Below are positions 954 through 39,672 of a DNA stretch of 45,489 bases, piece by piece. The position numbers and the translations under genes are program-made. The notes beneath the pieces were generated by a model. That model was not told the origin of the DNA. It saw nothing but the letters and a program-made list of their open reading frames with translations, and did not search any database. Position 1 is the first letter of the stretch, and every line of letters begins with the position of its first letter. Source of the DNA: a virus; the IMG/VR virus record IMGVR_UViG_3300010361_000006. One strand, given 5' to 3'.

Positions 954-960
954 CGTCCTG

Positions 961-10080: not shown

Positions 10081-10183
10081 GGATCCACTGACCGCTTTCG
10101 TCAACTTCGCTGGCCGACGCTAGTCACGGGGCGAGGATGGCTAAGAAGGGGAGTTATATTCTTATCTATCCTCGGAGCCCATC

Positions 10184-21842: not shown

Positions 21843-23222
21843 ATGCCGCGCGCTGCCAACGGTAACTACACTCTCCCCAATGCAGCCGTCAATCCCGGCG
21901 ACCTGATCACGTCGGCGTATATCAACGGTACGTTCAATGATCTTGCTGCGAACCTGTCAGCGTATTCAGGCAACCTCAACTTCAGTACGCTAGGCTGTCG
22001 TATCACTGGAGACATGAGCAACGCGACGCATAATAATCGCTTGCTCTTTCAAACGAGTACACTGAACAATCCCACGGTGGCAGGGGTCATTCCTAATGGG
22101 ACAGGGAATGCAGCGGGGTTGAATCTGTACGCCGCGCAGGATCCTATGAATTCGCAATATGTCCAGTTCCGTATGGATTCCAGTACTGGACTGGCTACGA
22201 TGTCTACGGGAGTGAATGGTTCTGGAGGCGCGCAACCATCTATTGCTCTGCAGACTAATGGCCTCCAGCGTTACCTCATTGATTCCGCTGGCAACCATAC
22301 TATATCCGGTACGACCTCGTGGGCGTGTAACACTCCAGCTGCTTACTTCAAAGGTGCGAATGGGGTATTGCTGGACGCTGGAGCTGGAACTTCTTATCCA
22401 TCCATCTACTGGTCCAATAATGGCAACGCGTGGTGGGCATTCTCAGTTGATTCTAACCATGTATTCTATCTTGGCAAGTATAATGGCTCTGGGACATGGA
22501 TAGCTAATTCCATCACGATTGCCCAGAGCAATGCCATTACCCTCAACGCGACGTCCTCTGCTGCCATTACGTTGAGTTGCAACAATACCCAGATTGCAAC
22601 GTCAAGCAATCTGTGTCCACTGTTCCTGAATGCGAATGGCTACGTGCCTCACTTCCGCTCCAACGCGTCCAATACATCGTTTGAGTGGGTGAACGGTGCG
22701 AATACTGCGGTGTGCATGCAGTTGAGTGAATTGGGAAGCTTGTACATCGGTCTTAATCAGAACATGAATAAGATCAATGTACAGAACTTCGGGCCGAACT
22801 ATGGCGTGGGCATTTTGTTCAAGCCGCTGGTGGATAGTGGGACATCACTGTACTTCCTCAACGTGGCGGGTAGCGCCATTGGTTCCATCACTCATTCTGC
22901 CACCACTACGGCGTTCAATACCTCGTCTGACTATCGCCTGAAGGAAAACGTCAAGGAGCTTACGGGATACAGGGAACGTATCATGGCCTACCGTCCAGTA
23001 GAGTTTGACTGGAAGTCCACGGGGGAACGGGGTCAAGGTTTTGTGGCCCATGACCTCCAAGCTGTGAACGCACTCGCTGTGACGGGAGTGAAGGATGAGC
23101 TAGACGATGAAGGAGCGGTTAAACCCCAAGGGGTGGACCACTCTAAGCTCATACCGGATCTGGTCGCTATGGTACAAGACTTGCAGCGCCAGATAAAAGC
23201 GCTCAAGGCCCGTAGACCCTGA
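21843..23222 (+). CDS. Tail fibre protein 2 with C-terminal peptidase S74 intramolecular chaperone domain
   Basis: The N-terminus MPRAANGNYTLPNAAVNPGDLITSAYINGTFNDLAANLS is paralogous to that of fibre 1. The C-terminus SSDYRLKENVKEL..YRPVEFDWK..GFVAHDLQAV..VDHSKLIPDLVAMVQDLQRQIKALK matches the S74 auto-cleaving chaperone. Confidence 0.85.
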   Translation: MPRAANGNYTLPNAAVNPGDLITSAYINGTFNDLAANLSAYSGNLNFSTLGCRITGDMSNATHNNRLLFQTSTLNNPTVAGVIPNGTGNAAGLNLYAAQDPMNSQYVQFRMDSSTGLATMSTGVNGSGGAQPSIALQTNGLQRYLIDSAGNHTISGTTSWACNTPAAYFKGANGVLLDAGAGTSYPSIYWSNNGNAWWAFSVDSNHVFYLGKYNGSGTWIANSITIAQSNAITLNATSSAAITLSCNNTQIATSSNLCPLFLNANGYVPHFRSNASNTSFEWVNGANTAVCMQLSELGSLYIGLNQNMNKINVQNFGPNYGVGILFKPLVDSGTSLYFLNVAGSAIGSITHSATTTAFNTSSDYRLKENVKELTGYRERIMAYRPVEFDWKSTGERGQGFVAHDLQAVNALAVTGVKDELDDEGAVKPQGVDHSKLIPDLVAMVQDLQRQIKALKARRP

Positions 23223-23249
23223 GCGCGTGTTTTGAAAGAAATTCCCCTA

Positions 23250-23273
23250 GCTTGTGGGCATTGGCCCACAAGC
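23250..23273. terminator. Bidirectional terminator-like hairpin between convergent operons
   Basis: 10-bp stem gcttgtgggc (23250-23259) pairs with gcccacaagc (23264-23273) around loop attg. It lies between the stop at 23222 (+) and the stop at 23284 (-). The flanking U-tracts are weak. Confidence 0.6.
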
Positions 23274-23283
23274 GCTCCTCACA

Positions 23284-23838
23284 TTACGCCTTGGGTCCTG
23301 CGACAGGAGCCTCAGGCAAGGTGTTATCCGGGCGTGCGCCCACATCCACCTTCACATACTTCCAGCCCGCATAGGGCAGGTACGCCAGAATCCAGACGCC
23401 ACCAGACTTCGGGTATGCGATCGGGTGACTAGGCGACAGCGGCGGATAGATGGGCAGCATGACGCTCGGCAGGGTATTGTCCACATACGGCGGCAGCGTG
23501 TTATCTACCTCACCGCCACCTCCGCCCGGCAGCGTATTATCCACTCCCGGGGGAAGACTATTATCCGGCCGCACCGGCAGATAGATGGGCAGCTCCACCT
23601 GTCCCGGAGGACGAACGGTGGGCGGGTTAGGCCATACGCTCGGGGGAGGAGTGATAGGTCCACCGCCGACGACCGGAGGCCAGATACCTACCGGCGGCTG
23701 CGGCGCTGGCACGCCATATCCAGGGTCCACCGGCGGACGTACACCATAGCCCGGATCCACCGGAGCTTCTACACCATAGCCCGGATCCACCGGACGATTG
23801 GACTGATCTACAGGAGTGATGACAGCAAGAAAGCTCAT
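23284..23838 (-). CDS. Proline-rich repeat protein (PVDPGYGV x3, DNTLP x5), unknown function
   Basis: 184-aa ORF, the last gene of the leftward operon. Repeats are PVDPGYGVEA/PVDPGYGVRP/PVDPGYGVPA, encoded by 30-bp repeats, plus RPDNSLP, VDNTLP (x3) and RPDNTLP. The + strand ORF 23254-24090 is an Arg-rich shadow frame. Confidence 0.65.
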   Translation of the reverse strand: MSFLAVITPVDQSNRPVDPGYGVEAPVDPGYGVRPPVDPGYGVPAPQPPVGIWPPVVGGGPITPPPSVWPNPPTVRPPGQVELPIYLPVRPDNSLPPGVDNTLPGGGGGEVDNTLPPYVDNTLPSVMLPIYPPLSPSHPIAYPKSGGVWILAYLPYAGWKYVKVDVGARPDNTLPEAPVAGPKA

Positions 23839-23847
23839 TTCAATCTC

Positions 23848-24558
23848 CTAAGGTTTGAGGCGTTGCAGCATATGGAAGGGCTCCGTGTTCATCTCCTTCA
23901 CGGCTGCGAAAAACATCATTCTACTCGGCTCCATCCACGCCTCTGCAATGACGTAACCGAGGTATGCGAGGCGGTCGTTGTAGGCACGCAGGTAGTCAAC
24001 CTCGTCCTTCACTTCACGCCCCAACTCTTTAACATAGTGACTGCGATGCAACCAGATCTTACTTGCTGCACTATCCGTCATCCATACTAGTGGGACGCGT
24101 TGCTTGGCGGCACGCGCCCAGAACTCCATTATATACGGGTTTTTGATAGTGCCAAGCATCTGGTCATACATAATTACATCATAGACACCGAGTGCGGAAT
24201 CCAGCAGACGCGTATAGCTGTCCTCCACTAGCTCCACATTCCCATACCCATGCTCCCGCAGGTACTTCACCAGCTCAGGATCTCGCTCCCACATCATATG
24301 ACTCTTGTTGCCACATGCCTTGTCTATCACCTGAGCCATCATCCCTACGCCCGCAAACGGATGGAGGATACGCTCATAGCTCGGGCAGATATATTTGGTG
24401 AAGTGGGTCATAGCGAGGATCTGTTCATTCATCATCCTCGTGTCTTCTTGCAGCATAATCTGGCACCCACCGTCAGTCATCTCTTCCTTCCCTCCCATGG
24501 ACAGGCCAATGGGGATGTGAACGGTGATGCCATTGCGGGTCACTTGGACGTGGTGCAT
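23848..24558 (-). CDS. Class I SAM-dependent methyltransferase-like protein
   Basis: 236 aa. ILHPFAGVGMMAQVI resembles motif I (vLDpFaGsG). The acidic MMWERDPE resembles the motif II position. VYDVIMYD resembles a motif IV-like strand. No DPPY/NPPY motif is present. Confidence 0.5.
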   Translation of the reverse strand: MHHVQVTRNGITVHIPIGLSMGGKEEMTDGGCQIMLQEDTRMMNEQILAMTHFTKYICPSYERILHPFAGVGMMAQVIDKACGNKSHMMWERDPELVKYLREHGYGNVELVEDSYTRLLDSALGVYDVIMYDQMLGTIKNPYIMEFWARAAKQRVPLVWMTDSAASKIWLHRSHYVKELGREVKDEVDYLRAYNDRLAYLGYVIAEAWMEPSRMMFFAAVKEMNTEPFHMLQRLKP

Positions 24559-24812
24559 TCTTCTTCCTTGATATATTTACTGACCATGAGGTCGTAGAAG
24601 TCACCATCCTTCTTTTCCAGCTCCTCTATATACTTGTCCAGAAAGTGGCGGGCCTTGTACAAATCCTTCAGTCCGTCCTTCTTCTTCCACCGTCCCACAT
24701 ATCTTGTGATCATGGCTTGAAAGTAGTCCAGGTCATTTGCGATTACATAGTCCCAGTGCTGGATGGGGGAACGGTAATGCGTCCCCCCAACCTGCGTATC
24801 GTTTGCTCCCAT
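24540..24812 (-). CDS. DUF3310 (SaV-like) family protein
   Basis: 90 aa. VGGTHY..IQHWDYV...RYVGRWKKKDGLKDLYKARHFLDKYI matches the DUF3310 signature, a family often next to phage nucleotide-metabolism genes. Confidence 0.7.
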   Translation of the reverse strand: MGANDTQVGGTHYRSPIQHWDYVIANDLDYFQAMITRYVGRWKKKDGLKDLYKARHFLDKYIEELEKKDGDFYDLMVSKYIKEEECTTSK

Positions 24813-24850: not shown

Positions 24851-25330
24851 TTACATGTACTTTCCTACGGAGTCTGCTATTACTTCCAGCCGCTTCTGTA
24901 CTTCACCATCAAAGCTGGATACGATAGGGCTATTCATCAGTTCCGCCATGCGCTTCAATCCGTTGAGCCACACGGGCTGGATGATGACATTGCCCATACT
25001 AAACTCAGCTTGACAGAAGGCATTGAGCTCAGTGATGTCTAACCAATCTAACATCCACCGGTCCTCTGGGGAGAGCATGTCTTCCACAACATTATGCTGT
25101 GCCAAAAATGTGTCACTTGCAGCATCTAAACCATCACGGAGAATAGGTGATCCCCACTTGGCCGGAGCGGGTACATCACCCGTCCACTGCTCCGCCCAGT
25201 CGTGCATTAGCACGGCGCGCACCAGCGTATGAGTAGGGTTTTGAACGCTATAGAGCAGCGCCAGCATGTTCGCGACATGCTCTCCTACCGTTTGTTGCTG
25301 GTGCGTGCGGACGGTGTGAAAACGCCTCAC
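24851..25330 (-). CDS. HD-domain phosphohydrolase (YfbR-like 5-prime deoxynucleotidase type)
   Basis: RRFHTVRTHQQQTVGEHVANMLALL...VLMHDWAEQWTGDVPAPAK contains the H...HD...D motifs of the HD superfamily. The start is uncertain. The ORF extends to ATG 25567 but would then overlap the upstream gene by 209 nt. The first in-frame start after that gene ends is GTG 25330. Confidence 0.7.
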   Translation of the reverse strand: MRRFHTVRTHQQQTVGEHVANMLALLYSVQNPTHTLVRAVLMHDWAEQWTGDVPAPAKWGSPILRDGLDAASDTFLAQHNVVEDMLSPEDRWMLDWLDITELNAFCQAEFSMGNVIIQPVWLNGLKRMAELMNSPIVSSFDGEVQKRLEVIADSVGKYM

Positions 25331-25358
25331 GGCGTTTCCATTTAGTCCAATGCGGAAG

Positions 25359-26354
25359 TCATCGAGCAGCAGGGGAACTTCCTCTTCGCTTGAGCCAAGA
25401 CCAGATGGCGAGGCTCCAGTCTTTAGCTCGCAGTCGCGTGATTTCTTCCCCGGCCCGTGCGTATTCCCCTGTCGCGACGCAGTCCCAGACACGACGGATG
25501 GGAATGGCCACACTCTGCCAGAATGGGTCTTTGAGGTCATGCCACTCTCCTTCAACAAAACGTTCACAGTCTAACATCCACCTCCCCACGGCACCACTAT
25601 TCACCATTGGAAAGGTAAGGATACCATTCGCCTCATACGGATCCAGCGGGTTCAGCCTATTGTCATACATGCCTGCTAGGCTGAATCCATCTACGTACAT
25701 GTGATAGTCATTGCTGAACTGATACATCCTGCCCTGATACACACCCACGGCATGCGCGATAAACTCATGGAGCATGCTCATGTGGACCGCGTTAGCGCCC
25801 AAGGCTCCCCAGATGAAGTCATTGCTCCTAGCCGTCACAGTCATGTCTAGGCAGTTGTCCCTCATAGAAAAGTAGATTTGGGTGTTGCACGGCACATCCT
25901 TCCCATCATAGTTTGTTAGACTGTCCCAGTTGGGACTGTACATCGTCATCACAGCACGGCGACTGTTACGGTACTTCTTAAAGTGCTCAACAATATCCGC
26001 AATCTGGTCAAAGCCAAAGCTATGAATCCATCGCCGGCCATATGCGCCGTGTAGACTCTCCCCGTCGTCACTGTACTTGCTTATTCCGTCATTGAACTGC
26101 TTCAGGAATGTGACGTCATTATGGCCCGCCATCATCCACAGACCTTCCATGAAGTGGAAGAATGGATTGGCGTCTCGATAGTAATTGAACAGCACACGCT
26201 CATTCGGCTTTTCATAGGTCGCACAGACCGGAGTAGGGCAGCGTAACACCTTCCCATTCCGGCTGGATTCTACACGGATGGTAGAATGATAGAAGTACTG
26301 AACCACTTGTGCATAGATGTGGTTCACGTTGCGACCTGAGATGTTTAATATCAT
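25359..26354 (-). CDS. Thymidylate synthase (ThyA) family enzyme, probable deoxypyrimidylate (dUMP) hydroxymethylase
   Basis: 331 aa. ThyA motifs present: FHFMEGLWMMAGHND, YGRRW, NSRRAVMTMYSP, catalytic Cys in VPCNTQIYF, ARSNDFIWGALGAN and SNDYHMYVD. The hydroxymethylase role is inferred from the neighbouring genes. Confidence 0.75.
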   Translation of the reverse strand: MILNISGRNVNHIYAQVVQYFYHSTIRVESSRNGKVLRCPTPVCATYEKPNERVLFNYYRDANPFFHFMEGLWMMAGHNDVTFLKQFNDGISKYSDDGESLHGAYGRRWIHSFGFDQIADIVEHFKKYRNSRRAVMTMYSPNWDSLTNYDGKDVPCNTQIYFSMRDNCLDMTVTARSNDFIWGALGANAVHMSMLHEFIAHAVGVYQGRMYQFSNDYHMYVDGFSLAGMYDNRLNPLDPYEANGILTFPMVNSGAVGRWMLDCERFVEGEWHDLKDPFWQSVAIPIRRVWDCVATGEYARAGEEITRLRAKDWSLAIWSWLKRRGSSPAAR

Positions 26355-27211
26355 GTTCTTTCCTCATGTGGAACATACATTTGCTTGGGCGCGGTGCCCT
26401 CATTGAACTTCACCCTACACCACTTGTCAAACTCACAGAGACAATTCTGCACGTCCTGCGCGTGGAGCTGCATCGCTGGTATCTGTGTCATCAACTCGTC
26501 CATCTCTGCCCGGAACTGTGCCACGCTAATCTGCTTTTCTATGGGCCTATTATGGAGCCGGTTCAGCCCACGGACTGATCCTGGCCCCGGCGCACACCAT
26601 GTCCACCAGTCGTCCGCTCCACGGAGCGCCACCGTATACTTCATATCTGCTATGATCTGGCCCGCCAGGAACGTGCTGATGCCCTTAGCTTGCGTAAGCA
26701 CCTCCTCCGCCTCAGCCAGCCGGCTGCACTGGCACAACTCTTCTTTATAGGTCCAGACCCGTCCCACGAGTAGGATGGTGAAGTTGATCTTGGACATCCC
26801 CTTACTCTCAGTGCCGGTGACCATGTAAGCACTGGTAAATGTCTTCTTCCCGGTAAGTTGACGTGCTTGAACTGTTCGGCGCACGTAATCTGCAACAGCA
26901 GCATCCCAACGTTCAACATACCCGATCTCGGCAAGCGTTTGAGGCCAGTTAATGATACGCGCCAACGTGACGTTGAGCCATAGGTAAGGATCCCCATCAT
27001 GGGGGTCACGGATATTTTCCTTAATCCATCTTGTGACCGTATCGTCCTCACGGTGAACGTTACAGAAGCGATATGTCTGTAGGATTTTATCTTCCGTCCA
27101 TGGTGGGGGCAGATGTTCAATATCCTTTGCGATGTGTATGCGGTGTCTCTCCAGTATCCAATACTTGAACGCATCCAACATCTCCTTGTTTAACCCATTA
27201 CTTTGGAGCAT
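26351..27211 (-). CDS. aGPT-Pplase family (alpha-glutamyl/putrescinyl-thymine pyrophosphorylase-like) DNA base hypermodification protein
   Basis: ATG 27211 is preceded by ggaggaaaaata. 286 aa. HLPPPWTEDKILQTYRFCNVHREDDTVTRWIKENI matches my recollection of the conserved N-terminal signature of this family (PPWT.D.IL..YRFcNV.RE.DrvT.W). This needs HMM confirmation. Confidence 0.6.
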   Translation of the reverse strand: MLQSNGLNKEMLDAFKYWILERHRIHIAKDIEHLPPPWTEDKILQTYRFCNVHREDDTVTRWIKENIRDPHDGDPYLWLNVTLARIINWPQTLAEIGYVERWDAAVADYVRRTVQARQLTGKKTFTSAYMVTGTESKGMSKINFTILLVGRVWTYKEELCQCSRLAEAEEVLTQAKGISTFLAGQIIADMKYTVALRGADDWWTWCAPGPGSVRGLNRLHNRPIEKQISVAQFRAEMDELMTQIPAMQLHAQDVQNCLCEFDKWCRVKFNEGTAPKQMYVPHEERT

Positions 27212-27512
27212 TATTTTTCCTCCAACGACGAACATATTGGTTTAATCCTTTCATGTGCATGCGTGCATGCTCTGCTAAGTTCATCTTTTCAAGATTATCA
27301 AAATCATTATTCTGTTTATTGTCATCCTTATGATGTACTAATGGATCATTGCCTTTCCAATGCTCACCTGTATTTTCCCACCAAACAAGTCTATGCTTGG
27401 TCACATAACGTGTACCAAAGACTGGATGATCTACAACTTTCACTTCAACATATCCAGATTTGGCATCGACATATTCATATCCAGCAGATACGCGCCATTT
27501 ATACTTGCCCAT
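27198..27512 (-). CDS. HNH homing endonuclease
   Basis: 104 aa. KHRLVWWENTGEHW..LVHHKDDNKQNNDFDNLEKMNLAEHARMH is an HNH_3-type motif. The gene is strikingly AT-rich: two 60-nt stretches I counted are 40% and 27% G+C, against about 50% in flanking genes. Confidence 0.85.
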   Translation of the reverse strand: MGKYKWRVSAGYEYVDAKSGYVEVKVVDHPVFGTRYVTKHRLVWWENTGEHWKGNDPLVHHKDDNKQNNDFDNLEKMNLAEHARMHMKGLNQYVRRWRKNNAPK

Positions 27513-28065
27513 ACAATGTCCTCACATCTTCGTAGGACTCCACTTTAACGGCGTTGCGGTGCAATTCATTCTGTAGTCTATCCCATAGCCGCCACATCGC
27601 GGCATCTTTGTCAATTATGTTAACGGGGTTGAGGGGACGAGTATCTCCACGGGCCAGCCTCCGCTCCTGGGTGCGACGGATACATTCCTCTATGGGCGTG
27701 GTCATGAAAGCGAATATGTGGTCGTCTCCCCACTGTTCGCTTACCTTACCCATCCGTCCATAGAAGCCGCTGGCAATCATGGATTCATAAAAGACATTAT
27801 AACCGGACGCCCCATAGTGGGCGATCAGGTTCACGCAAGTATCGCTGTCCAAAGCGTCTAGTCCCCCGCAGACTGTTGTGTATGGACCAAGGATCCATAG
27901 CGGGAACTCCCACCCCATGTCGCAGAGATATGCTTCCGGCTTGCGGCCATCACGCCTTACCTCCTTGACCTCTTTACTTTCTTCTAGGAACCTGCGAGCA
28001 ATCGTCGTCTTGCCACTGCCACAGGTGCCCATCAACTTGACTATCTTACGTTGGGGCATTACCAT
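27499..28065 (-). CDS. P-loop kinase (candidate 5-hydroxymethyl-dU DNA kinase or dNMP kinase)
   Basis: 188 aa. Walker A KLMGTCGSGKTTIARRF, with size and composition of a small nucleotide kinase. TAATG junction with the SNF2 gene. Confidence 0.6.
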   Translation of the reverse strand: MVMPQRKIVKLMGTCGSGKTTIARRFLEESKEVKEVRRDGRKPEAYLCDMGWEFPLWILGPYTTVCGGLDALDSDTCVNLIAHYGASGYNVFYESMIASGFYGRMGKVSEQWGDDHIFAFMTTPIEECIRRTQERRLARGDTRPLNPVNIIDKDAAMWRLWDRLQNELHRNAVKVESYEDVRTLYGQV

Positions 28066-29459
28066 TATAAAACTCCTTCATGTCTAAACCTACTCGTAGG
28101 AGGTTTTAGAGCGTTTTTTACATCGTCATCCGTAGCCTCCTTGGAGGCCAGCACATTCATCACTCTTTCGTCTAATGTGTCCCGAGCAATAATCCAGTGG
28201 AGGGTGACATGCTCCCCGGTGTTGCCTTGACGGTACACTCGTTTAAGGAACTGGTAGTACCACTCATAGTTCCACGTGATGCCGAACATGCAGACGTGAT
28301 GGCATGCGCACTGCAGATTAAGGCCGTGGCCCATACTAGCAGGATGGCCAATAAGATGAGGGATGATACCACGATTAAAGCTTTCATTGACGTACTCCAA
28401 TTCCTTGGTCGTAGTCAAGTTTACGGTTCGCGGAATTGTTCGCTCAATAGACTCCGCATCGAACTGAAACTCATACGCGGTGAGTAGTGGTTGGCCTTGG
28501 AGCTGCTCGACAAGATCAGCCAGTGCGCGGATCTTCTCGAAGTGAAGCGGACTGACCCGACGGTTAGCGTTGTCCCCCTCATAGTAAATGCTACCATTTG
28601 CGATTTGACGACACTTCCCTCCAACAACGGCAGCGTTTGGAGCAAAGACAGGCTCACCTCCCGCCAGAAGCGTAAAGAACTTTCGCTGCATTTCAACATA
28701 GTGACGGCGGGCAGCGGGAGGAAGGTCAACATAGATGCGATCATGTACCAGCTCCGGTAGGTCAATGAAGTCCTCTTCACTGAAGTGAATGAGTGTGTCC
28801 TTTAGCTTATCCTGTATCTCCTTTGCCGCACCGGGCATCAGCTCCAGACTATAGTTGTCAAATGGATCTTGACGGAAGTACATGGAGCGGTAGTGAGTGA
28901 TGAACTTACCCAACGCCTTCCCCATATCACAGATGTACACCTGACCAAAGAGGTCCTCATAGCCATTGGGCGCGGGCGTGCCGGTCAATATCACCCTCCG
29001 CTTGAACTGTGGGAGGAAAGGCTTCAACGCCTTGAACCGCTGCGTTTGTGTGTCCTTAAACTTCGTGGATTCATCCACAATGAGACAGTCAAATCCTTGT
29101 CCTGCCCACAGCTTCGGGTCTAAGATGATCTTTAGACTTTCTGGGTTGATCAGGTAAATCTGGTGGTTCTGCTTCAGCAGTGCAATGCGCTCCTTCGCCT
29201 CCAGCTCACACAGATTGCAGATATCAAGATGGTTGAAATCGTCCCACTTCTGGATCTCCAAAGGCCACACAAGCTTACAAACTCGTAACGGCGCGACTAC
29301 AAGTACCTTATGGATCTTGCCTGCCTTCAACAAGATATCTATAGCTGCCAGCGCAATAGATGTTTTCCCCATCCCGGGATCCAATATGATACCGGACCCA
29401 AAGTGCTCAATGACCCACTGGACGCCAACTACTTGATAGGGGTGAGGTTCCCAACGCAT
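28065..29459 (-). CDS. SNF2-family DNA helicase/translocase
   Basis: 464 aa. Motif I ILDPGMGKTSIALAAI, motif II CLIVDESTKFK, motif III VILTGTPAPNGYEDLF. C-terminal helicase lobe (..GHGLNLQ..). Confidence 0.85.
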   Translation of the reverse strand: MRWEPHPYQVVGVQWVIEHFGSGIILDPGMGKTSIALAAIDILLKAGKIHKVLVVAPLRVCKLVWPLEIQKWDDFNHLDICNLCELEAKERIALLKQNHQIYLINPESLKIILDPKLWAGQGFDCLIVDESTKFKDTQTQRFKALKPFLPQFKRRVILTGTPAPNGYEDLFGQVYICDMGKALGKFITHYRSMYFRQDPFDNYSLELMPGAAKEIQDKLKDTLIHFSEEDFIDLPELVHDRIYVDLPPAARRHYVEMQRKFFTLLAGGEPVFAPNAAVVGGKCRQIANGSIYYEGDNANRRVSPLHFEKIRALADLVEQLQGQPLLTAYEFQFDAESIERTIPRTVNLTTTKELEYVNESFNRGIIPHLIGHPASMGHGLNLQCACHHVCMFGITWNYEWYYQFLKRVYRQGNTGEHVTLHWIIARDTLDERVMNVLASKEATDDDVKNALKPPTSRFRHEGVL

Positions 29460-30217
29460 TCATATCTCCCGAGGACTGGAGCGGGTAGGAGTGATTGAAG
29501 CTCCGGCCAGCCGTCCAGCGCTTTCCTCTTATCCTCAATATCATCGCCAATCTGGTGCGTCTTTGTGATAAACGCACCCTTGATCATACATAAGACTGTT
29601 TCTGCCTCCTGCAGTGCGCAGTATCCTGCGCGATAACCCAACGGGATAGATTGTATGTGCGCAAGCACCGTCTCAAGCGCTTGTGATCGTGATAGGTCAG
29701 GGAACACATGGACAGCCGCTTCTTTCGGCTCCTTGGGTAGATACTGGCAGGCTTCATCCAGCGATAGCTCGATATCATGATCGAAAACCCTCGTCTGCAA
29801 GTCTAGTACTTTCCATATGAAATACTCCCCAAATCCACAGCCTCTAAACGGCCCCTTGGTAAAGAGATGGACTAGGCTGGTGTAGTTGCCCGCCACCATA
29901 CTCTCAAAGGCCGTGGCGGGGCTCTCTGTGGCTCCCCTAAGCCTCGCCATAGCGTTGCGGCCCTGTGCGCCCCGGTAATGCCTCCTTTCCGTCCCACGTT
30001 GGAGGTTGTCAAATTCGTACTCATACCTAGACCACGACCAGTGCTCTTCGGCAGCGCGGGCAGCGTCCCCTGCATGATAGAAGAGGAGGAAGTGGAGGCA
30101 GTATCGCTTCACCCATTCCTCTCCCTTGAGGGCGCGGGCATGGTACGCCATCTGGTACATGGGATCTAGATCGTTAGATTCAATCGTAACCGTCGCGAAT
30201 CTATGCCAGCTCTCCAC
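29429..30217 (-). CDS. Hypothetical helical protein; possible second glycosylase-fold hypermodification transferase (aGPT-Pplase clade 2/3-like)
   Basis: The ORF extends to ATG 30289, a 124-nt overlap with VRR-NUC. GTG 30217 and ATG 30160 are alternative starts. DLDPMYQMAYHARALKGEEWVKRYCLHFLLFYHAGDAARAAE and an all-helical composition. The assignment rests on context and vague resemblance only. Confidence 0.35.
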   Translation of the reverse strand: MESWHRFATVTIESNDLDPMYQMAYHARALKGEEWVKRYCLHFLLFYHAGDAARAAEEHWSWSRYEYEFDNLQRGTERRHYRGAQGRNAMARLRGATESPATAFESMVAGNYTSLVHLFTKGPFRGCGFGEYFIWKVLDLQTRVFDHDIELSLDEACQYLPKEPKEAAVHVFPDLSRSQALETVLAHIQSIPLGYRAGYCALQEAETVLCMIKGAFITKTHQIGDDIEDKRKALDGWPELQSLLPAPVLGRYECVGNLTPIK

Positions 30218-30498
30218 TCGCTCAACGCTGCTATCGCCTCCTCCGCGTTGTCCGTCCACATGGCCTTGAATCCCTGTTCCTTCAACCATTTGATCCTCCA
30301 GAATTGTAGAGTGGTGGGCTTTTCCCCGGGTCGCTTGAATTCAATGAAGAATACCTGACCGAAATAGAGGAACTCCACATCCGGCCAGCCCCGGTTACCT
30401 CTAAGGGTGAGCTTGAAGCTTTCCATCCCCCATTGAGCGTGCGCATGCTCGCGCACATTGTTTTCTGTCTTACTTTCCAAATCGGTCGCCAAGTTCAC
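30166..30498 (-). CDS. VRR-NUC domain nuclease
   Basis: 110 aa. GWPDVEFLYFGQVFFIEFKRPGEKPTTLQ carries the D..ExK PD-(D/E)XK core typical of VRR-NUC. Confidence 0.75.
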   Translation of the reverse strand: MNLATDLESKTENNVREHAHAQWGMESFKLTLRGNRGWPDVEFLYFGQVFFIEFKRPGEKPTTLQFWRIKWLKEQGFKAMWTDNAEEAIAALSEWRAGIDSRRLRLNLTI

Positions 30499-31177
30499 AT
30501 GGACCTCCCTGTGAAGCTTTGTAAGGACAAAACCGGCACGCGTTACGGCTCGGTGTCGGTAGGAATTCAGTCGCTGTCAAAATCTCATTTGCCAATTTCG
30601 TCCAAGGGGTCGCGTAGTGGTCAAACATCTCTGGCATGTAACTCATGGAGTGCCCAAGACGGCCACCCTCGTCGATGTACCACGCGGCTACATCTACTCG
30701 CTTTACGTCTTTGTATCGCTTCATTCCCATCAGGGCGTAGATTTGGAGTTGTTCTTCGTGTTCCGGGTACCTCTTTCCTGACTTAAGGTCAACAATGTTG
30801 AGGACATCACCATCCATTTTATGGAGATCGATAATAGCTTTTCCCCAAGCCAGAGACTCATCCTGGACAGGAGACCAAGAAGCGTCCATAAGCCAAATCT
30901 CTTCACTCTTCCACCCGTTGAGTCGCATTCGTTCTAGTTCCGGGCCGAGGGGAATCATCTCCTTGCAGAGCTGGACAGGATCCTCCGGCGTCTGCTTGAT
31001 ATAGTCCTCAGCGTTCTTATGGAGGCGCGTCCCGCGTTGCGCCGCTGGTCCCGGCACATGCACCTCTCCTGTTCTAGTGATGTTATCAAACATATACTCC
31101 AGAGGACAGTCCTTGTACGTGCTGATGGCCGAGTAGCTCCATCGGGTCGGCCGTGAGTTCGTGGTAGTTGCGTCCAT
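30470..31177 (-). CDS. PD-(D/E)XK exonuclease, Cas4/RecB-like with Cys4 cluster
   Basis: WSYSAISTYKDCPLEYMF, IIDLHKMDGDVLNIVDLKSGKRY, and C-terminal CRFCPYKASQGGPC. ATG 31177 is the first plausible start, and it still overlaps the polymerase gene by 92 nt. Confidence 0.8.
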   Translation of the reverse strand: MDATTTNSRPTRWSYSAISTYKDCPLEYMFDNITRTGEVHVPGPAAQRGTRLHKNAEDYIKQTPEDPVQLCKEMIPLGPELERMRLNGWKSEEIWLMDASWSPVQDESLAWGKAIIDLHKMDGDVLNIVDLKSGKRYPEHEEQLQIYALMGMKRYKDVKRVDVAAWYIDEGGRLGHSMSYMPEMFDHYATPWTKLANEILTATEFLPTPSRNACRFCPYKASQGGPCELGDRFGK

Positions 31178-32921
31178 AGCCAATATCCACCCTAAAGGGA
31201 ACATCAAACCCCGCCATGTCTTCCATGGCGGACCTGATTACCTTAGTTTCGTACAGGATACTGTCTACGGGAACGTTGAATACGTTTTCGTCATGCACCG
31301 TCATAAGAAACTCCCCCGCATGGGGGGAGTCATGGTAACGGATGAGGGATTCCTTGGTTTGGTCTGCAGCCGAACCTTGGATAAGATAGTTAACCAGCTT
31401 GTAGTTAAATGAGCACCAACGTCCGTTGATTATCTTAGAAGGCTCAACGGGTATCGTTCGCCCACCGGATGTTCGTACGTAATCCCGGGAGGACACTTCG
31501 TCGATGAATTCCCTGAGTCCGTACATGGAGTTGAAGTAGGCTTCTCGTATGGTATAGGCCGTGGCGTAATCAACGGCAAGTCCGTGGGAGAGGGATCTGG
31601 TGCCTTCTCCATAGACGAGGCCGAAACCAACTGCTTTAGTTGCTCTTCTCTCAAGCCGTAGACCGGATTCTGTAGAGACAATTCCAGCAGCCACTTGGTG
31701 GAGGTCTGCTTCTGGGTCATCAAGGTAGATCTGCTGAAGTCGTCCTTCGGCAAAGTGGGCAAGTAGTCGCATTTCTTGGGATTTGTAATCTGCCGCGACA
31801 AGTAGGCATCCATCTTCCGCGAGGATATATTGCCGCATTGGAGGCAATGGAGGATAACCTGCCGGAGGGTTTCCTTGGAGTACATCTGGGATATTTTGAA
31901 AGTTAGGATCGCTGCATGATAGCCTCCCCGTGCGTGTTCCATAGTCATCCCCACGCACGGCATTCCAACTCGGGTGAACGCGTCCATCGCGCGCAGACAG
32001 TCGAAGCCATCCCCGCATGAAAGTTCCAAGTAGAGTCTTAAGTTGTCCTCGGTAAGCGAGCAATCCAACAAGATGATCATTTTTGACTCCAATGAGAAGA
32101 TTTTCACGGGACGTAGAGAGCTTACCCGTGGGGGTGCGGGGCCATTCCTCCTCCACTCCCAGCCCTGCGGCCAGTATAGCCGCTGTCAGCTCAGGACCGC
32201 TATCCAGGTTGACACTAATACCACAATGCAGAATAGAGCGGATATCATCGTCCAGACGGATATATACGGATTCGTAATATTCTGTGTCTCTAGCAAGGCG
32301 AGCACGATCAATACGCACACCGCGACGCTCAGCGGCAGCAAGGATAGGGGAAAGTAGAAGCTCGCGCACATAGGCTGCCTCCATCCGCTGACCCAATATT
32401 TCTGGGTACAGCCTATCATACAGTTTACGAGTACGGACGACGTCGCCTATGGCGTAGCGGCCTACAAGGTCGCCTGGACACAGGCATATCTTATCGCCCC
32501 AATGCTTGCAGTTCCACGCGATCAGCTTCTGTGCCCGCAACCATTCGCCTAGGGCATCTTGCTCATCAGGAGGAATCCCAAGAATGCGTTCGCTACTAGG
32601 CTTAAGAGATACAGAATCTGCGTGGGGGTCGTGAAGGTAGATAAGGAACTGCGTATCATCAATACGATTTGGGTAATCAAAGCCAAAGTGACTAGATGCA
32701 ACGCCAATGTCAAACTTTGCGTGGTGAAACAGACCATGATCCCACACCTCCGCAAGACGGCGGCGACCATCCTCCCACGTGCTGTTATTGTTCGTGGGAT
32801 GGCCCCACGCAAGATATTCAGGAGATTTGCCCTCCTCCCATATGGCCACGCCAACGGGGGAGGGTGATAGACCGCTTCCAAACTGAATTGCCTGAGTTTC
32901 AAAATCACATGTTGTAATCAC
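31086..32921 (-). CDS. DNA polymerase I (family A) with 3-prime-5-prime exonuclease domain
   Basis: 611 aa. Exo I TCDFETQAI, motif A VAADYKSQEMRLLAHF, motif B RRATKAVGFGLVYGEG, motif C LMTVHDENVF. Confidence 0.92.
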   Translation of the reverse strand: MITTCDFETQAIQFGSGLSPSPVGVAIWEEGKSPEYLAWGHPTNNNSTWEDGRRRLAEVWDHGLFHHAKFDIGVASSHFGFDYPNRIDDTQFLIYLHDPHADSVSLKPSSERILGIPPDEQDALGEWLRAQKLIAWNCKHWGDKICLCPGDLVGRYAIGDVVRTRKLYDRLYPEILGQRMEAAYVRELLLSPILAAAERRGVRIDRARLARDTEYYESVYIRLDDDIRSILHCGISVNLDSGPELTAAILAAGLGVEEEWPRTPTGKLSTSRENLLIGVKNDHLVGLLAYRGQLKTLLGTFMRGWLRLSARDGRVHPSWNAVRGDDYGTRTGRLSCSDPNFQNIPDVLQGNPPAGYPPLPPMRQYILAEDGCLLVAADYKSQEMRLLAHFAEGRLQQIYLDDPEADLHQVAAGIVSTESGLRLERRATKAVGFGLVYGEGTRSLSHGLAVDYATAYTIREAYFNSMYGLREFIDEVSSRDYVRTSGGRTIPVEPSKIINGRWCSFNYKLVNYLIQGSAADQTKESLIRYHDSPHAGEFLMTVHDENVFNVPVDSILYETKVIRSAMEDMAGFDVPFRVDIGYGRNYHELTADPMELLGHQHVQGLSSGVYV

Positions 32922-33457
32922 TTTGAGCCTCCTTTTGCTGCAATGTTTTTTCTACGAGTCTCCCATCCTTTTAGAGTTGCTTTATGTGTACTGCCGGTTG
33001 CTTTTCTTGTTTCGGCAGATCTAGCAGCAGCTATGAGATCCATTCCACTAATTTTTCTAGATTCTGCTCCTCTTCTAATAGCATCCAACATCTTTTCTCT
33101 ATCTGTAATCCATCGTTTTCGTGAGGCTTCTCCGATTTTTCTACAGCGTTCAGGGTCTTGCAGAACTTCAAGCTTGTGGGCAGCTTCTAATGCGAGCTTG
33201 ACATTCTTAAAACACGAATGCCTTCCTTTCTGTACAGCATCATCTACATTGTCCTTCCACGTGCCTAGGAAGTGATGACTGTCTTCGATGCAAAGAGGAT
33301 TGTCACATGTGTGACATACTGCCAAGGTAGAATTATTGATAAGACCATGCCTGAGCTGATAAACTTGCCTAGATGGTCCAGCTGGATGTATTAAGCATCC
33401 GCCAATTCTTTCAGCTTCAGCTTCATACTGTTGAACGGTCTTTTTGGTGGTGTGCAT
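32918..33457 (-). CDS. HNH homing endonuclease
   Basis: 179 aa. VCHTCDNPLCIEDSHHFLGTWKDNVDDAVQKGRH is an HNH-type motif, followed by a basic helical C-terminal region. AT-richer than the adjacent polymerase gene. ATGA junction with the pol start. Confidence 0.8.
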   Translation of the reverse strand: MHTTKKTVQQYEAEAERIGGCLIHPAGPSRQVYQLRHGLINNSTLAVCHTCDNPLCIEDSHHFLGTWKDNVDDAVQKGRHSCFKNVKLALEAAHKLEVLQDPERCRKIGEASRKRWITDREKMLDAIRRGAESRKISGMDLIAAARSAETRKATGSTHKATLKGWETRRKNIAAKGGSK

Positions 33458-33511
33458 GTTCCTGTCCTCTTAGGAGAGTACGCGATACGAGGTACAGGAA
33501 CAACTGCTAGG

Positions 33512-33591
33512 CGGTCTGTGCGGGAATTGAACCCGCTACCTTCCGTGGCCTTTCAAGCTTAGGGACGCTCTACCGGTGAGCTAAACAGACC
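33512..33591 (-). tRNA. tRNA-like gene with irregular, extended anticodon arm (anticodon unresolved; GAA in the best hand fold)
   Basis: The minus strand reads GGTCTGT-TTA-GCTC-ACCGGTA-GAGC-G-...-GCGGG-TTCAATT-CCCGC-ACAGACC-G. It has a perfect 7-bp acceptor stem, a canonical D arm and a canonical T arm/T loop. One extra nt lies before the D stem. 24 nt occupy the space where a 17-nt anticodon arm is expected. Confidence 0.6.
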
Positions 33592-33635
33592 ATTGGTAAA
33601 TGGTAGGCCCCTGATGTGGGGCCTACAAGGGGAAC

Positions 33636-34013
33636 TTACTCTGTTTCTTCTCCTACTTCGCTAAACATCTCTTCAGCGAATTGGAAGGCCATCACTGCCA
33701 TCAACTGCCGGTAATCACGCGTACCAACCGGTGGAATATGATGCGAATCCGAAGCGTTAGCGTGATGCCGGACCATGGTACAGAATGTGGCTTTGAGCAA
33801 CTCGTAAAAAGGTTGCGTAATGCCATCCGTCGTTTTGGTCCCAACGCTCGCTTCAATCGTGCCTTTTCCATCCTTGTCAAAATCATTGAGATGTACGAAG
33901 ATGTAATTGTAGAGTTTATACTTCTGGATTACTTCTTGTATCTCTACGATATGCGGGGTGGGCTGATGTCCCTCCAGCCCTGGATCAGTGCGTTGCTCGG
34001 GCAATTTCGTCAT
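33636..34013 (-). CDS. Hypothetical protein
   Basis: ATG 34013 is preceded by ggagaggaac. 125 aa. The longer ORF-track version (to 34163) would overlap the upstream gene by about 180 nt. Confidence 0.5.
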   Translation of the reverse strand: MTKLPEQRTDPGLEGHQPTPHIVEIQEVIQKYKLYNYIFVHLNDFDKDGKGTIEASVGTKTTDGITQPFYELLKATFCTMVRHHANASDSHHIPPVGTRDYRQLMAVMAFQFAEEMFSEVGEETE

Positions 34014-34392
34014 GTTCCTCTCCATGTTCGTGCTCTTCCATCTCTGTTTCCATGGCCATGTGGTGCAGGGAGTGAGCTGCGCTACGGACTGCCGCAGCCA
34101 CCAACGCATAGCAATCACTCGTTCCGCCACATGGAACCTCCATCGGTAGCTGACCTTTGTCATAGGCCACCCGCAACATCCCTTCCGTGATGGAGCCGAT
34201 GACGGCGGTGAAGCGCTCCCGCACGTCTACGTTGACAAGGTCCACCGCAATAGCCATCTCTTCATCCGGGCGCTGTTCATCTTCGCGTTTGTCATAACAC
34301 CCCATCACCATTTCGATGTGCTCATGGCCATCGTACTTCTTCAAGAGGTCATGGCATTCCATCATGAACTTCTTCACTTGATCATGATTCAT
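33985..34392 (-). CDS. Hypothetical protein with His/Glu-rich C-terminus
   Basis: ATG 34392 is preceded by aagggag. 135 aa. The tail HSLHHMAMETEMEEHEHGEEHDE suggests metal binding. Confidence 0.5.
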   Translation of the reverse strand: MNHDQVKKFMMECHDLLKKYDGHEHIEMVMGCYDKREDEQRPDEEMAIAVDLVNVDVRERFTAVIGSITEGMLRVAYDKGQLPMEVPCGGTSDCYALVAAAVRSAAHSLHHMAMETEMEEHEHGEEHDEIARATH

Positions 34393-34490
34393 TACGAGAA
34401 CTCCCTTAGAACGGCCGATCCCGCCGGTGGTACTAACCCACCAGCCCACCAGCGAGAGCGGCCTGAAGAGCCGCTGAGCGGCTCCAGAGG

Positions 34491-34946
34491 TTAGGCGGTT
34501 ACAGCACGGTAGATCTTTCGGTAGTGGATAACTCCAGCGTTGAGTCGGGGTGTGCGAGCGTATACATGGCGTTCATGCACAACCAAGGTAGCCAAATCGT
34601 TTGTGCGATCCCATACCAGGAGTTCGCCATCGCGGTCCACCACGCAGTCGCGCCCACATCCATCATCGGGAGGAATGGATTGTTCATACATGTTCCTGTT
34701 AAATTTGAATATGAAAGTATCACCTATCATATAGGCGTCACAGATGAATGATTCACCGGTGTCCTGGAACTTCACGACACAACCGTTAAGGATACAAGAC
34801 ATTTTACCCAGTTCCTTTATCAGGCCCGTGCGGGCCGCGTGTTCTTTGTCAATCATACGATTAACTATCCATTGTGGCTGCAATGTCATCTCCGCCTCTT
34901 GCCTGCGGAGGATCTGGTCCTTATACAGATCCATCGCGTTTATCAT
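34491..34946 (-). CDS. Hypothetical protein
   Basis: ATG 34946 is preceded by ggag 7 nt upstream. 151 aa. Confidence 0.5.
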   Translation of the reverse strand: MINAMDLYKDQILRRQEAEMTLQPQWIVNRMIDKEHAARTGLIKELGKMSCILNGCVVKFQDTGESFICDAYMIGDTFIFKFNRNMYEQSIPPDDGCGRDCVVDRDGELLVWDRTNDLATLVVHERHVYARTPRLNAGVIHYRKIYRAVTA

Positions 34947-35280
34947 TGTGATCTCCAATAATCTTAGCCAATTCATCAAAGAAGCCATCAATGTCATTGG
35001 TGTCACCGTCTGCTTCATGCTTAATGGTGACTTCCTTGGTGATGAAACGGGCGTAGACTGTTACACCGTCGTCAAACTTCTGCATCAAGCGCGTTTCCAC
35101 CATGGGGCTGCACAGGACGCGCACCAGCCTACTGCAATCTTCTTCCTTGCCTTCGTACAAGACGATGTCCTGTCCATTGGCTCGCATCACAGCTTGGTAC
35201 TGATCATTCATTGGACGTGTGAGAAAATACAGCACACTCGTCTTACCCGTACTGATTAATAACCCCTGCATCTTCATCAT
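34921..35280 (-). CDS. Hypothetical protein
   Basis: ATG 35280/35277 is preceded by aaggaggg. About 119 aa. First gene after terminator 35365-35400. Confidence 0.5.
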   Translation of the reverse strand: MMKMQGLLISTGKTSVLYFLTRPMNDQYQAVMRANGQDIVLYEGKEEDCSRLVRVLCSPMVETRLMQKFDDGVTVYARFITKEVTIKHEADGDTNDIDGFFDELAKIIGDHNDKRDGSV

Positions 35281-35364
35281 TACCCTCCTTGAAAGCACGT
35301 TAAGGGGAGACTCTCCCAGATGGCCTCGCGCGCCACTGCCATCTACAGACGGGAGAACCTCCCC

Positions 35365-35400
35365 AAAAAGTGCCTACCCAATTATATAATCGGGTAGGCA
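35365..35400 (-). terminator. Rho-independent terminator after the GH5-like gene
   Basis: On the minus strand, tgcctaccc-gattatataatt-gggtaggca forms a 9-bp stem, followed by cttttt. It lies 19 nt after the stop at 35419. Confidence 0.8.
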
Positions 35401-35418
35401 TCTTACGCGTACAAAAGT

Positions 35419-36738: not shown

Positions 36739-36744
36739 TACTCC

Positions 36745-37485: not shown

Positions 37486-37514
37486 GATAGGATACCTGTG
37501 TACAAGCCGAGGTT

Positions 37515-38193: not shown

Positions 38194-38217
38194 GGTACGA
38201 TATACTCGGTTAAATTA

Positions 38218-38237
38218 GAGCCCCATAGAGGGGCTCC
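38218..38237 (-). terminator. GC-rich hairpin, possible attenuator/terminator
   Basis: gagcccc (38218-38224) pairs with ggggctc (38231-38237) around a 6-nt loop. It lies 13 nt after the stop at 38250 and is followed on the minus strand by taattta. Confidence 0.4.
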
Positions 38238-38249
38238 AGGGGTGGGTGC

Positions 38250-39655: not shown

Positions 39656-39672
39656 TACATTTACCCTGTTGG

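Follow-up and report, generated by a model that had tools for sequence, protein, structure and literature searches.

The gene neighbourhoods that direct the hypermodification of thymidine in phage DNA were reportedly first described by Iyer et al. 2013 (NAR 41:7635). Such hypermodifications shield phage DNA from restriction enzymes and nucleases, and they supply both novel DNA chemistry and enzymes of use in biotechnology. In the described pathways, 5-hydroxymethyldeoxyuridine (5-hmdU) in DNA is phosphorylated by a 5-hmdU DNA kinase (5-HMUDK) (Lee et al., 2018, 2021), a clade-2 aGPT-Pplase (ADDT) uses a cysteine thiolate to form an exocyclic methylene to which glycine adds through its amine or serine through its hydroxyl (Lee et al.), and the amino acid so attached is then remodelled by further enzymes (Lee et al., 2018, 2021). 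Tailoring enzymes known so far are radical S-adenosylmethionine (radical-SAM) isomerases, pyridoxal phosphate (PLP) decarboxylases, flavin lyases and acetyltransferases (Lee et al.), and these clusters are also accompanied by amidoligase and glutamine amidotransferase domains (Lee et al., 2021). Here we analyse a gene cluster of this kind in a 45,489-nucleotide stretch of viral DNA, IMG/VR record IMGVR_UViG_3300010361_000006 (the whole stretch is called the window below), and in particular the two genes that close it, which encode a 236-amino-acid (aa) protein with a predicted methyltransferase (MT) fold and a 184-aa proline-rich repeat protein.

The core of the cluster is the same as that of the M6, ViI and PaMx11 pathways (Lee et al., 2018, 2021), namely a ThyA-like enzyme or a TET/JBP dioxygenase, a P-loop and helical 5-hmdU DNA kinase and an ADDT with a Glu/Cys pair. 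The ADDT-like protein of the window keeps this pair (E230/C234), which is invariant across nine ADDT sequences; M6 gp51 and ViI gp247 require its counterpart (Lee et al., 2021). The known tailoring toolkit of radical-SAM, PLP, flavin and acetyl-CoA enzymes holds no enzyme of SAM methyltransferase fold: in a comparison with Lee et al. (2018, 2021), no SAM methyltransferase was found among the tailoring enzymes or the associated genes. This agrees with an earlier prediction made from the window sequence alone (hereafter the original prediction), which had judged the 236-aa protein unlike the known thymidine tailoring enzymes. We favour, with moderate confidence, the reading that the 236-aa protein acts with the hypermodification core as a tailoring enzyme dependent on SAM, and that the 184-aa protein is a mobile accessory protein outside the pathway.

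Predicted fold and conserved residues of the 236-aa protein

Direct searches assigned the 236-aa protein to no described family. It had no significant match in Pfam, PHROGs or NCBIfam, and nothing significant was returned by sequence and profile searches of the PDB. A tblastn search of 50,697 phage records found nothing for it or for one distant MT from locus L108, and a scan of GTDB at one genome per species, which was limited by the peptide pattern used, found no member of the family. Homologues came instead from larger protein collections: a word-indexed database of 5.8 billion proteins yielded seven close homologues, and an exhaustive profile search of 1.84 billion representative proteins yielded 94 matches, mostly of about 200-290 aa.

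An AlphaFold2 model built from the close-homologue alignment (predicted local distance difference test (pLDDT) 82, predicted template modelling score (pTM) 0.83) shows the predicted order b1(63-66), aA, b2(86-91), aB, b3(108-110), aC, b4(128-133), aD, b5(157-162), aE, b6(203-209), b7(215-220), which with its terminal b6-b7 hairpin is the topology of class I SAM methyltransferases. Foldseek matched the model to 716 PDB chains at E<=1e-3, with a probability of 1.0 to many SAM methyltransferases; the top 50 PDB matches were nearly all SAM-dependent methyltransferases, including DnrK, CmoA, ChlM and Trm1, and also included spermidine synthase, a user of decarboxylated SAM. The best viral matches were two phage proteins annotated 'AdoMet_MTases', with template modelling (TM) scores of 0.68 and 0.74. 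The matches of the family that fell below threshold point the same way, with weak hits to RrnaAD and TRM5-TYW2 in Pfam and to EEF2KMT, Mtf1, a KsgA-type enzyme and a cation-dependent O-methyltransferase in the PDB, almost all of them methyltransferases. On the basis of the model, we assign the 236-aa protein a class I SAM-dependent methyltransferase fold.

Combining the 94 profile hits with members translated from IMG/VR yielded an alignment of 136 distinct sequences, whose median identity to the window protein is 19%, and conservation was read from this set (Table 1). The two glycines of motif I (G70 and G72), the acidic residue at position 91 and D113 correspond, as aligned, to the classical SAM contacts of the class I fold, and D132, T137, D162, Y175 and Y189 look like an active site. 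Another position stands out for its variation: Cys96, in the helix after strand 2 (ERDxxC), occurs in 122 of the 136 members and is Leu in the window protein (at about 24271-24273) and in its closest homologue, P0002. Three long proteins, P0072 (4583 aa), P0078 (917 aa) and P0123 (2121 aa), matched short parts of the MT profile many times, P0072 with 30 stretches around profile positions 171-209 and P0078 with 14 around positions 143-176; these are probably repeat proteins unrelated to the MT-fold family.

The motif that the original prediction had called class-I SAM-binding-like is thus borne out as motif I of the predicted fold, and so is its view that the protein is not a standard N6A/N4C DNA methyltransferase. 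The (D/N/S)PP(Y/F/W) motif is absent, the window protein reading D132-Q-M-L-G-T and the family consensus D-(F/L)-(P/N)-x-x-(T/S); PCQ and ENV motifs are not conserved in family alignments A1 and A2; Pfam gives no N6_N4_Mtase, MethyltransfD12 or DNA_methylase match; and at 236 aa the protein is too short for a target-recognition domain. A Dam/Dcm-type DNA base methyltransferase was rejected on the absence of the diagnostic motifs. The original prediction had also proposed structure prediction for this protein, and AlphaFold2 with Foldseek returned a methyltransferase fold, neither another fold nor a Dam/Dcm type.

Linkage to the hypermodification core and proposed role

The MT-fold family adjoins thymine-hypermodifying genes in more than 60 other phage contigs. 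Close homologues end the same ADDT-SNF2-kinase-HMUDK_hel-ThyA operon, and a DUF3310 gene lies directly upstream of the MT-fold gene in the window and in 7 of the 8 close-clade loci. This shared gene order is weak evidence when taken alone, because the phages are related. Distant relatives (14-26% identity) were found in assembly contigs L093-L095, whose contexts came from a profile search of the word-indexed database with alignment A2 (11 proteins returned), and there the gene is clustered with ADDT and kinase genes in differing gene orders (Table 1). A scan of metagenomes added one new locus, L092; its other two hits were the L009 contig again (as L090) and a fragment of 1.7 kb (L091).

The largest set of loci came from a scan of IMG/VR with the distant-clade alignment, which returned 58 (L096-L153). 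Using iterative profile searches seeded from window and L001/L093-L095 proteins, we detected ADDT in 54 of these loci and the P-loop kinase in 50; where ADDT was missing (four loci), the contig stops at the MT gene. The MT and ADDT open reading frames (ORFs) abut or overlap in about 50 loci, with the kinase directly next in most. A TET/JBP dioxygenase (Pfam E=9e-23) is encoded just upstream of the MT in 47 loci, usually with a ParB_N protein before it, and a DUF3310 protein often follows the kinase, so that the commonest module reads ParB, TET/JBP dioxygenase, MT, ADDT, kinase, DUF3310. As a control, 84 unrelated phage loci carrying the repeat-protein family gave no match to ADDT, kinase, ThyA or HMUDK_hel; for scale, 5-HMUDK occurs in about 5 per 10,000 IMG/VR contigs (Lee et al., 2021). 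The original prediction had proposed asking whether homologues of the 236-aa gene co-occur with aGPT-Pplase and kinase genes in other phages, and the answer from these loci, from L093-L095 and from phage Pam3 (below) is strongly positive.

Because the linkage holds across several gene orders and for both sources of 5-hmU, we consider the MT-fold family tied to the ADDT/kinase core whichever way 5-hmU appears to be made, by a pre-replicative ThyA-like enzyme or by a post-replicative T-dioxygenase. The compact arrangement of ParB_N, TET/JBP dioxygenase, MT, ADDT and P-loop kinase, often with DUF3310, is present in at least 47 IMG/VR contigs (examples in Table 1). To judge from its gene content, this module is a cassette for hypermodifying thymidine after replication, and of its genes only that for the MT-fold protein is unannotated. 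With no Pfam, PHROG or NCBIfam model for the family, surveys of such clusters based on Pfam would leave this gene 'hypothetical'. We also observed that DUF3310 proteins accompany hypermodification genes in clusters of both the ThyA type (as in the window) and the TET/JBP type (as in L118), and that PHROGs tie the DUF3310 domain to nucleotide kinases.

A member of the family is present in a cultured cyanophage. Pseudanabaena phage Pam3 gp39, annotated as hypothetical, matched the family by hhalign (98.6%, E=1e-15) and by the family hidden Markov model (E=9e-22). Within 7 kb, Pam3 also encodes an aGPT-Pplase2 (gp47), a radical-SAM-like protein (gp46, annotated 'photolyase'), a PLP enzyme (gp43, annotated 'threonine dehydratase') and a P-loop protein/kinase (gp49). 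In the one Pam3 genome paper searched, no term for thymidine hypermodification or for methyltransferases appears.

In the pathway that we propose for the window, the ThyA-like enzyme would supply 5-hmdU, the kinase would phosphorylate 5-hmdU in DNA, and ADDT (aGPT-Pplase2) would swap the phosphate for an amino acid; the 236-aa enzyme would then bind SAM and alkylate the amino-acid group so attached, N- or O-methylation being the likeliest reaction, to give a hypermodified thymidine not yet described. Esterification of the carboxylate would neutralise a negative charge, a charge that decarboxylation or lyase cleavage eliminates in the pathways of M6, ViI and PaMx11. D132 and D162 lie after strands 4 and 5, in the places of the metal ligands of cation-dependent O-methyltransferases, and since this correspondence is one of topology, it hints at a metal-assisted reaction in which the two invariant Asp might help to bind a chelating substrate such as glycinate or a carboxylate. 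The association of the MT-fold family with this core would imply an uncharacterised hypermodified thymidine.

A broader version of this proposal, which we put forward more tentatively and with somewhat less than even confidence, is that a widespread module has four core enzymes (a 5-hmU source, a kinase, ADDT and, as the fourth, the MT-fold protein) and yields an undescribed natural base, for example an N-methylated or methyl-esterified amino-acid-thymine or an adduct bearing another SAM fragment, through metal-assisted chemistry that would be new for DNA-modifying enzymes, with Pam3 as a cultured source. If the family is indeed a near-obligate partner of ADDT, one or more additional hypermodified thymidines probably have yet to be identified chemically, the compact four-to-six-gene module could serve for reconstitution, and Pam3 would be the cultured phage for a direct test.

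Several observations weigh against a tailoring role. The likeness to solved methyltransferases is at the level of the fold alone (TM about 0.5, 11-16% identity), every sequence match to known methyltransferase families is below significance, and no known catalytic motif follows strand 4. At three positions the residue of the window protein is not that of the family consensus (H66 for E, L96 for C and M134 for P), and its gene lies 4.9 kb from that of ADDT, not adjacent to it. SAM binding, substrate, chemistry and product are what we infer from the predicted fold, the conservation of the cofactor site and the linkage, and a SAM-dependent step that is not methylation, synthesis of the ADDT donor, or a regulatory or scaffolding role could likewise account for the linkage.

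Of these alternatives, we consider it unlikely that the 236-aa protein uses SAM or a derivative to transfer something other than methyl (aminocarboxypropyl or aminopropyl), or that it makes or presents the nucleophile for ADDT. Spermidine synthase, an aminopropyl transferase, and CmoA, a carboxy-SAM synthase, are indeed among the fold matches, and TYW2, an aminocarboxypropyl transferase, is named in one of the weak Pfam matches; no known catalytic motif for methyl transfer is present, and the abutting or overlapping MT and ADDT ORFs of about 50 loci would suit a protein that serves ADDT. Those matches are, however, no better than the matches to ordinary methyltransferases, most enzymes with this fold are methyltransferases, and no gene to supply decarboxylated SAM or carboxy-SAM was seen in the clusters. 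The same tight ORF overlap, present in most loci, and the same want of a recognisable catalytic motif would also fit a non-catalytic partner of ADDT that has retained an MT-like fold as a scaffold, DNA-targeting subunit or regulator. We regard this as improbable, because residues of the SAM site are 89-100% conserved among sequences that are otherwise 14-20% identical, and D132, D162, Y175 and Y189 are conserved at 98-99%, a pattern typical of an active site. Least likely of all, and in our estimate very improbable, is a chance resident of the operon, a DNA base methyltransferase (N6-adenine, N4- or C5-cytosine) of the usual anti-restriction kind. The fold is class I, DNA methyltransferases are common in phages and some viral Foldseek matches were cytosine methyltransferases, at low TM scores (0.42-0.48); yet the protein lacks the motifs, a Pfam match and a target-recognition domain, and a near-obligate adjacency to ADDT and kinase over divergent clades and gene orders would not be expected of such an enzyme. 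Absent motifs and linkage together place this explanation last, and a SAM-dependent tailoring enzyme remains the reading that we prefer for the 236-aa protein.

The proline-rich repeat protein

Proline accounts for 43 of the 184 residues (23.4%) of the second protein, which is acidic (pI 4.6). The original prediction had put the proportion at about 25%, so that the description as proline-rich stands while the figure is corrected to the measured value; its counts of three PVDPGYGVxx and five (V/P)DN(T/S)LP repeats were both verified, and the former are matched by a tandem repeat in the DNA (Table 1). An AlphaFold2 model based on 46 sequences is an extended chain (pLDDT 62, pTM 0.26) in which the conserved C-terminal beta-hairpin (residues 147-165) is the sole confident element.

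The protein is 130-235 aa long across the repeat family, for which we collected 52 protein-database matches and 93 confirmed IMG/VR stretches, with 80 loci kept. Its members share a short N-terminal hydrophobic stretch, the motifs PVDPGYG, PPPGIWPPP, PGTIWP, xDNTLP and SHPI, and a C-terminal segment FWMLxYxPxxGWKYVxVDPSL followed by a ...QPK end. Among 46 members there was no match in Pfam, PHROGs (including structural families), NCBIfam or the PDB. The tblastn search of the 50,697 phage records returned nothing for the 184-aa protein or for family member P0017, both being repeat proteins of the sort that the low-complexity filter probably masks; the GTDB scan, again limited by the peptide pattern used, found no member of this family; and a full-text search of the literature gave nothing relevant on the DNTLP motif. 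From its homologues we place the 184-aa protein in a separate, widespread and unannotated phage family. It matters less than the MT-fold protein, being another unannotated phage family common in metagenomes, with repeats that look like multivalent short motifs.

Three identities were tried for the 184-aa protein and set aside. It has no signal peptide, lipobox or membrane helix (N-terminus MSFLAVITPVDQ; maximum 19-residue hydropathy 0.71; no Cys in the mature sequence), on which ground a spanin was rejected. No G-X-Y periodicity was found, and a collagen-like protein was rejected for that reason. The likeness of PIYLPVRP to insect proline-rich antimicrobial peptides was dismissed, since the 184-aa protein is acidic and far longer.

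The original prediction had paired the two genes as closing the modification operon together, and the distribution of their families speaks against this. No repeat-family member occurs in 69 other loci that bear the MT-fold gene, and no hypermodification gene occurs in 84 repeat-family loci. In the related 41-kb contig L009 there is no repeat gene at this place and the MT gene converges directly on a tail-fibre assembly gene, and in the close relatives L001, L003 and L004 the position of the repeat gene holds a small ORF or nothing. With each family absent from the loci of the other, we conclude that the 184-aa protein is not part of the pathway and that its adjacency to the MT-fold gene is positional.

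What surrounds the repeat gene elsewhere is varied. A conserved 71-aa membrane protein with a single helix is encoded near it in 20 loci and immediately downstream in 10, a lipobox ORF overlaps its stop in a few, an M15 peptidase lies one gene downstream in L007, and in some loci it follows a beta-helix protein (putatively a tailspike by composition, with no PHROG match). In 23 viral contigs it lies beside a gene for a signal-peptide protein of about 215 aa with a C-terminal PEP-CTERM-like tail (VPEPASLALLGLGVLGLAAVRRR); that protein has no PHROG match, and such a sorting signal is unusual in phage genes. In L031, which is myovirus-like, the repeat gene and the gene for the 71-aa membrane protein lie between the tail sheath gene and a 155-aa ORF (a putative tail tube, judged from its position), and it looks as if the two had been inserted into the tail module together. 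The frequency of membrane, secreted or tail neighbours is a weak pointer to a role at the envelope or the virion periphery, and we suggest, with low confidence, that the 184-aa protein is the product of a horizontally mobile accessory gene, an extended multivalent-motif protein acting at one of these sites, whose C-terminal hairpin, as modelled, probably serves docking or oligomerisation. This suggestion is weakened by the mixed neighbourhoods on which it rests and by the features of an exported or membrane protein that the 184-aa protein lacks.

Two more specific roles seem equally likely, and each is possible though doubtful; both are in line with the original prediction, which had suggested a structural, envelope-binding or lysis-related protein. 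As a virion component (a fibre, a whisker or a tail-associated protein) the 184-aa protein would be attached through its C-terminal beta-hairpin. In one lineage the repeat gene starts 13 nt after the tail-sheath gene, inside the tail module, it is found elsewhere downstream of the putative tailspike, it sits right at the end of the tail-fibre module in both the window and L008, and an extended, repeat-rich protein would be in place there; on the other side, the window gene is co-transcribed with early/middle replication and modification genes and not with a structural operon, the contexts are heterogeneous, and no structural PHROG resembles the family. A role at the envelope of the host (lysis, the exclusion of superinfecting phages or a further moron function) would involve the neighbouring small membrane or secreted proteins. 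The 71-aa membrane protein (20 loci), the PEP-CTERM-like protein (23) and the occasional lipobox ORFs would be such partners, the M15 peptidase of L007 lies close by, and no lysis cassette was recognised elsewhere, with no endolysin, holin or spanin found among the scanned window ORFs (especially 1-5000 and 33000-42900). Yet the pattern of neighbours holds in about half of the loci only, the copy in the window has no such partner gene beside it, and the protein itself carries no signal peptide, lipobox or transmembrane segment.

Locus layout and comparison with known systems

As the original prediction had it, both genes lie tightly coupled and downstream of the DUF3310, HD and ThyA-like genes, on the strand of those genes (the minus strand), in agreement with ORF coordinates and with Pfam and PHROGs (Table 1): the start of the 236-aa gene overlaps the DUF3310 stop by 19 nt, and the ATG of the 184-aa gene comes 9 nt past the stop of the 236-aa gene. 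They were also said to be the last genes before a convergent terminator, and two strong hairpins and a converging plus-strand tail-fibre gene were found there. Since the seven close homologues retain the N-terminal beta-hairpin, the ATG at 24558 is likely the true start of the 236-aa gene. With conserved homologues for each, both ORFs are judged to be genuine genes. An antisense ORF at 23254-24090 (plus, 278 aa) was rejected as a gene, as it overlaps both conserved genes and has no supporting evidence.

Table 1. Positions of the features discussed, in the window and in other loci
Locus	Feature	Position	Strand	Remark
Window	236-aa MT-fold gene	23848..24558	minus	ORF; ATG after AAGGA
Window	Motif I ILHPFAGVG (residues 64-72)	24343..24369	minus	G70 and G72 100% in 136 sequences
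Window	Stretch with the other conserved positions (E91 to D162)	24073..24288	minus	136-sequence alignment
Window	Position 91, end of strand 2	24286-24288	minus	E or D in 136/136
Window	D113, after strand 3			D in 121/136 (89%), N in 10/136 (7%)
Window	D132, end of strand 4	24163-24165	minus	98%
Window	Position 137			T or S in 99%
Window	D162, end of strand 5	24073-24075	minus	98%
Window	Y175 and Y189			99% each
Window	184-aa proline-rich repeat gene	23284..23838	minus	ORF; AGGAG, then ATG 7 nt on
Window	Three tandem 10-aa PVDPGYGVxx repeats (residues 16, 26, 36)	23704..23793	minus	
Window	DNA tandem repeat	23714-23794		30-nt period, 2.7 copies
Window	(V/P)DN(T/S)LP repeats (residues 91, 99, 111, 119)	23467..23568	minus	
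Window	Fifth (V/P)DN(T/S)LP repeat (residue 170)	23314-23331	minus	
Window	Conserved C-terminal beta-hairpin (residues 147-165)	23344..23400	minus	GVWILAYLPYAGWKYVKVD
Window	Sigma-70-like promoter match	24128-24155	minus	TTGGCA, 16 nt, TATAAT; 11/12 positions
Window	Terminator-like hairpins, operon 3' end	23252-23273 and 23199-23226 (then UUUUAU)	minus	Fold z = -4.6
Window	Tail-fibre gene with Peptidase_S74 chaperone domain	21843-23222	plus	Converges on the hairpins; Pfam
Window	DUF3310 gene	24540-24812	minus	Pfam, PHROGs
Window	HD/YfbR-like phosphohydrolase	24851-25567	minus	Pfam, PHROGs
Window	ThyA-like enzyme, putative dUMP hydroxymethylase	25359-26354	minus	Pfam, PHROGs
Window	HMUDK_hel (5-hmdU DNA kinase helical-domain protein)	26351-27235	minus	Pfam, PHROGs; E=2.7e-44
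Window	104-aa ORF	between HMUDK_hel and P-loop kinase	minus	
Window	P-loop kinase	27499-28065	minus	Pfam, PHROGs
Window	SNF2 helicase	28065-29459	minus	Pfam, PHROGs
Window	ADDT/aGPT-Pplase2-like transferase	29429-30289	minus	Pfam, PHROGs; E230...C234 pair
L093	Gene order			HMUDK_hel, HNH, ThyA, kinase, 355-aa ORF, ADDT, MT
L094	Gene order			MT, ADDT, 440-aa ORF, 214-aa ORF, kinase, HMUDK_hel
L095	Gene order			ADDT, MT, kinase, ThyA
L108	Compact ParB/TET module	5600-10900		
L153	Compact ParB/TET module	7022-8216		
L118	DUF3310 gene in TET/JBP-type cluster	10452-10826		
L154 (Pam3, ON014755.1)	gp39 and hypermodification genes	30603-31229 and 33676-38532		
L031	Repeat gene and 71-aa membrane-protein gene in tail module	5962-7522		Myovirus-like
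L011	PEP-CTERM-like protein	6669-7304		
L037	PEP-CTERM-like protein	6599-7255		
L044	PEP-CTERM-like protein	201-854		
L066	PEP-CTERM-like protein	7378-8121		And other loci

Some further features of the window deserve mention. The sigma-70-like promoter match is a strong one within the MT-fold gene, some 290 nt before the start of the 184-aa gene, and could drive separate transcription of the repeat gene. Read from its GTG start, the longest HD/YfbR-like ORF has 238 aa and shares 209 nt with the ThyA-like gene; since the homologue in L009 has 212 aa, the true start is probably an internal codon. At window positions 2001-3000, upstream of a 443-aa ORF (a putative terminase), the GC skew is strongly negative at -0.30, and convincing ORFs are few. 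In the related contig L001, a Phage_lysis (Rz-like) gene and small ORFs follow the tail-fibre genes.

For the 184-aa protein, the nearest described counterparts are the small and very proline-rich lysis lipoproteins of phages, o-spanins such as lambda Rz1. Like such o-spanins, the 184-aa protein is small and proline-rich, and members of its family sometimes lie beside membrane or lipobox ORFs; it differs in having no signal peptide, lipobox Cys or i-spanin partner gene, in being four times longer and in carrying PVDPGYGV and DN(T/S)LP repeats.

For the 236-aa protein, the closest comparison in gene order is with the ParB-dependent phage T-dioxygenase clusters (PNAS 2026, PMC13229309): the distant MT clade has its place in clusters of just this type, between the TET/JBP dioxygenase and ADDT (called 'AADT' in that work), with ParB and a P-loop kinase. 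The main text and preprint describe the same neighbourhoods, annotated mainly by Pfam families, and do not name the MT-fold family. In structure, the family can be aligned with the cation-dependent O-methyltransferases (COMT/CCoAOMT, PDB 4oa5), with which it would share the Rossmann-like SAM fold, the GxG loop, the acidic residue of strand 2 and the Asp of strand 4. These enzymes carry a metal ligand after strand 5, where the 236-aa family has an invariant Asp. The match to the 4oa5 profile is weak (E=0.11) and there is no Methyltransf_3 match in Pfam, but D132 aligns with the first metal-binding Asp, and D132 and D162 are topologically equivalent to metal ligands of the O-methyltransferases. 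Their DxDK and DN motifs are not reproduced. The family has no conserved Asn or Lys, and it has its own N-terminal beta-hairpin and the invariant Tyr175 and Tyr189.

A functional analogy may be drawn with enzymes of the tRNA wobble uridine. MnmC2/MnmM (5-aminomethyluridine (nm5U) to 5-methylaminomethyluridine (mnm5U)) and Trm9/CmoM (carboxymethyl ester) are class I, SAM-dependent enzymes that methylate an amine or a carboxylate on a side chain at C5 of uridine, which resembles what we propose for the 236-aa protein. There is no detectable sequence relationship, and the substrate here would be DNA, not tRNA. PaMx11 gp46/gp47 have themselves been likened to MnmEG/MnmC1 (Lee et al., 2021). Compared with the M6, ViI and PaMx11 pathways, in clusters of comparable make-up the 236-aa family occupies the position of the tailoring enzymes, and since the cluster of the window and the compact ParB/TET modules are without the other tailoring enzymes of those pathways, the MT-fold protein is in both the sole candidate for that step.

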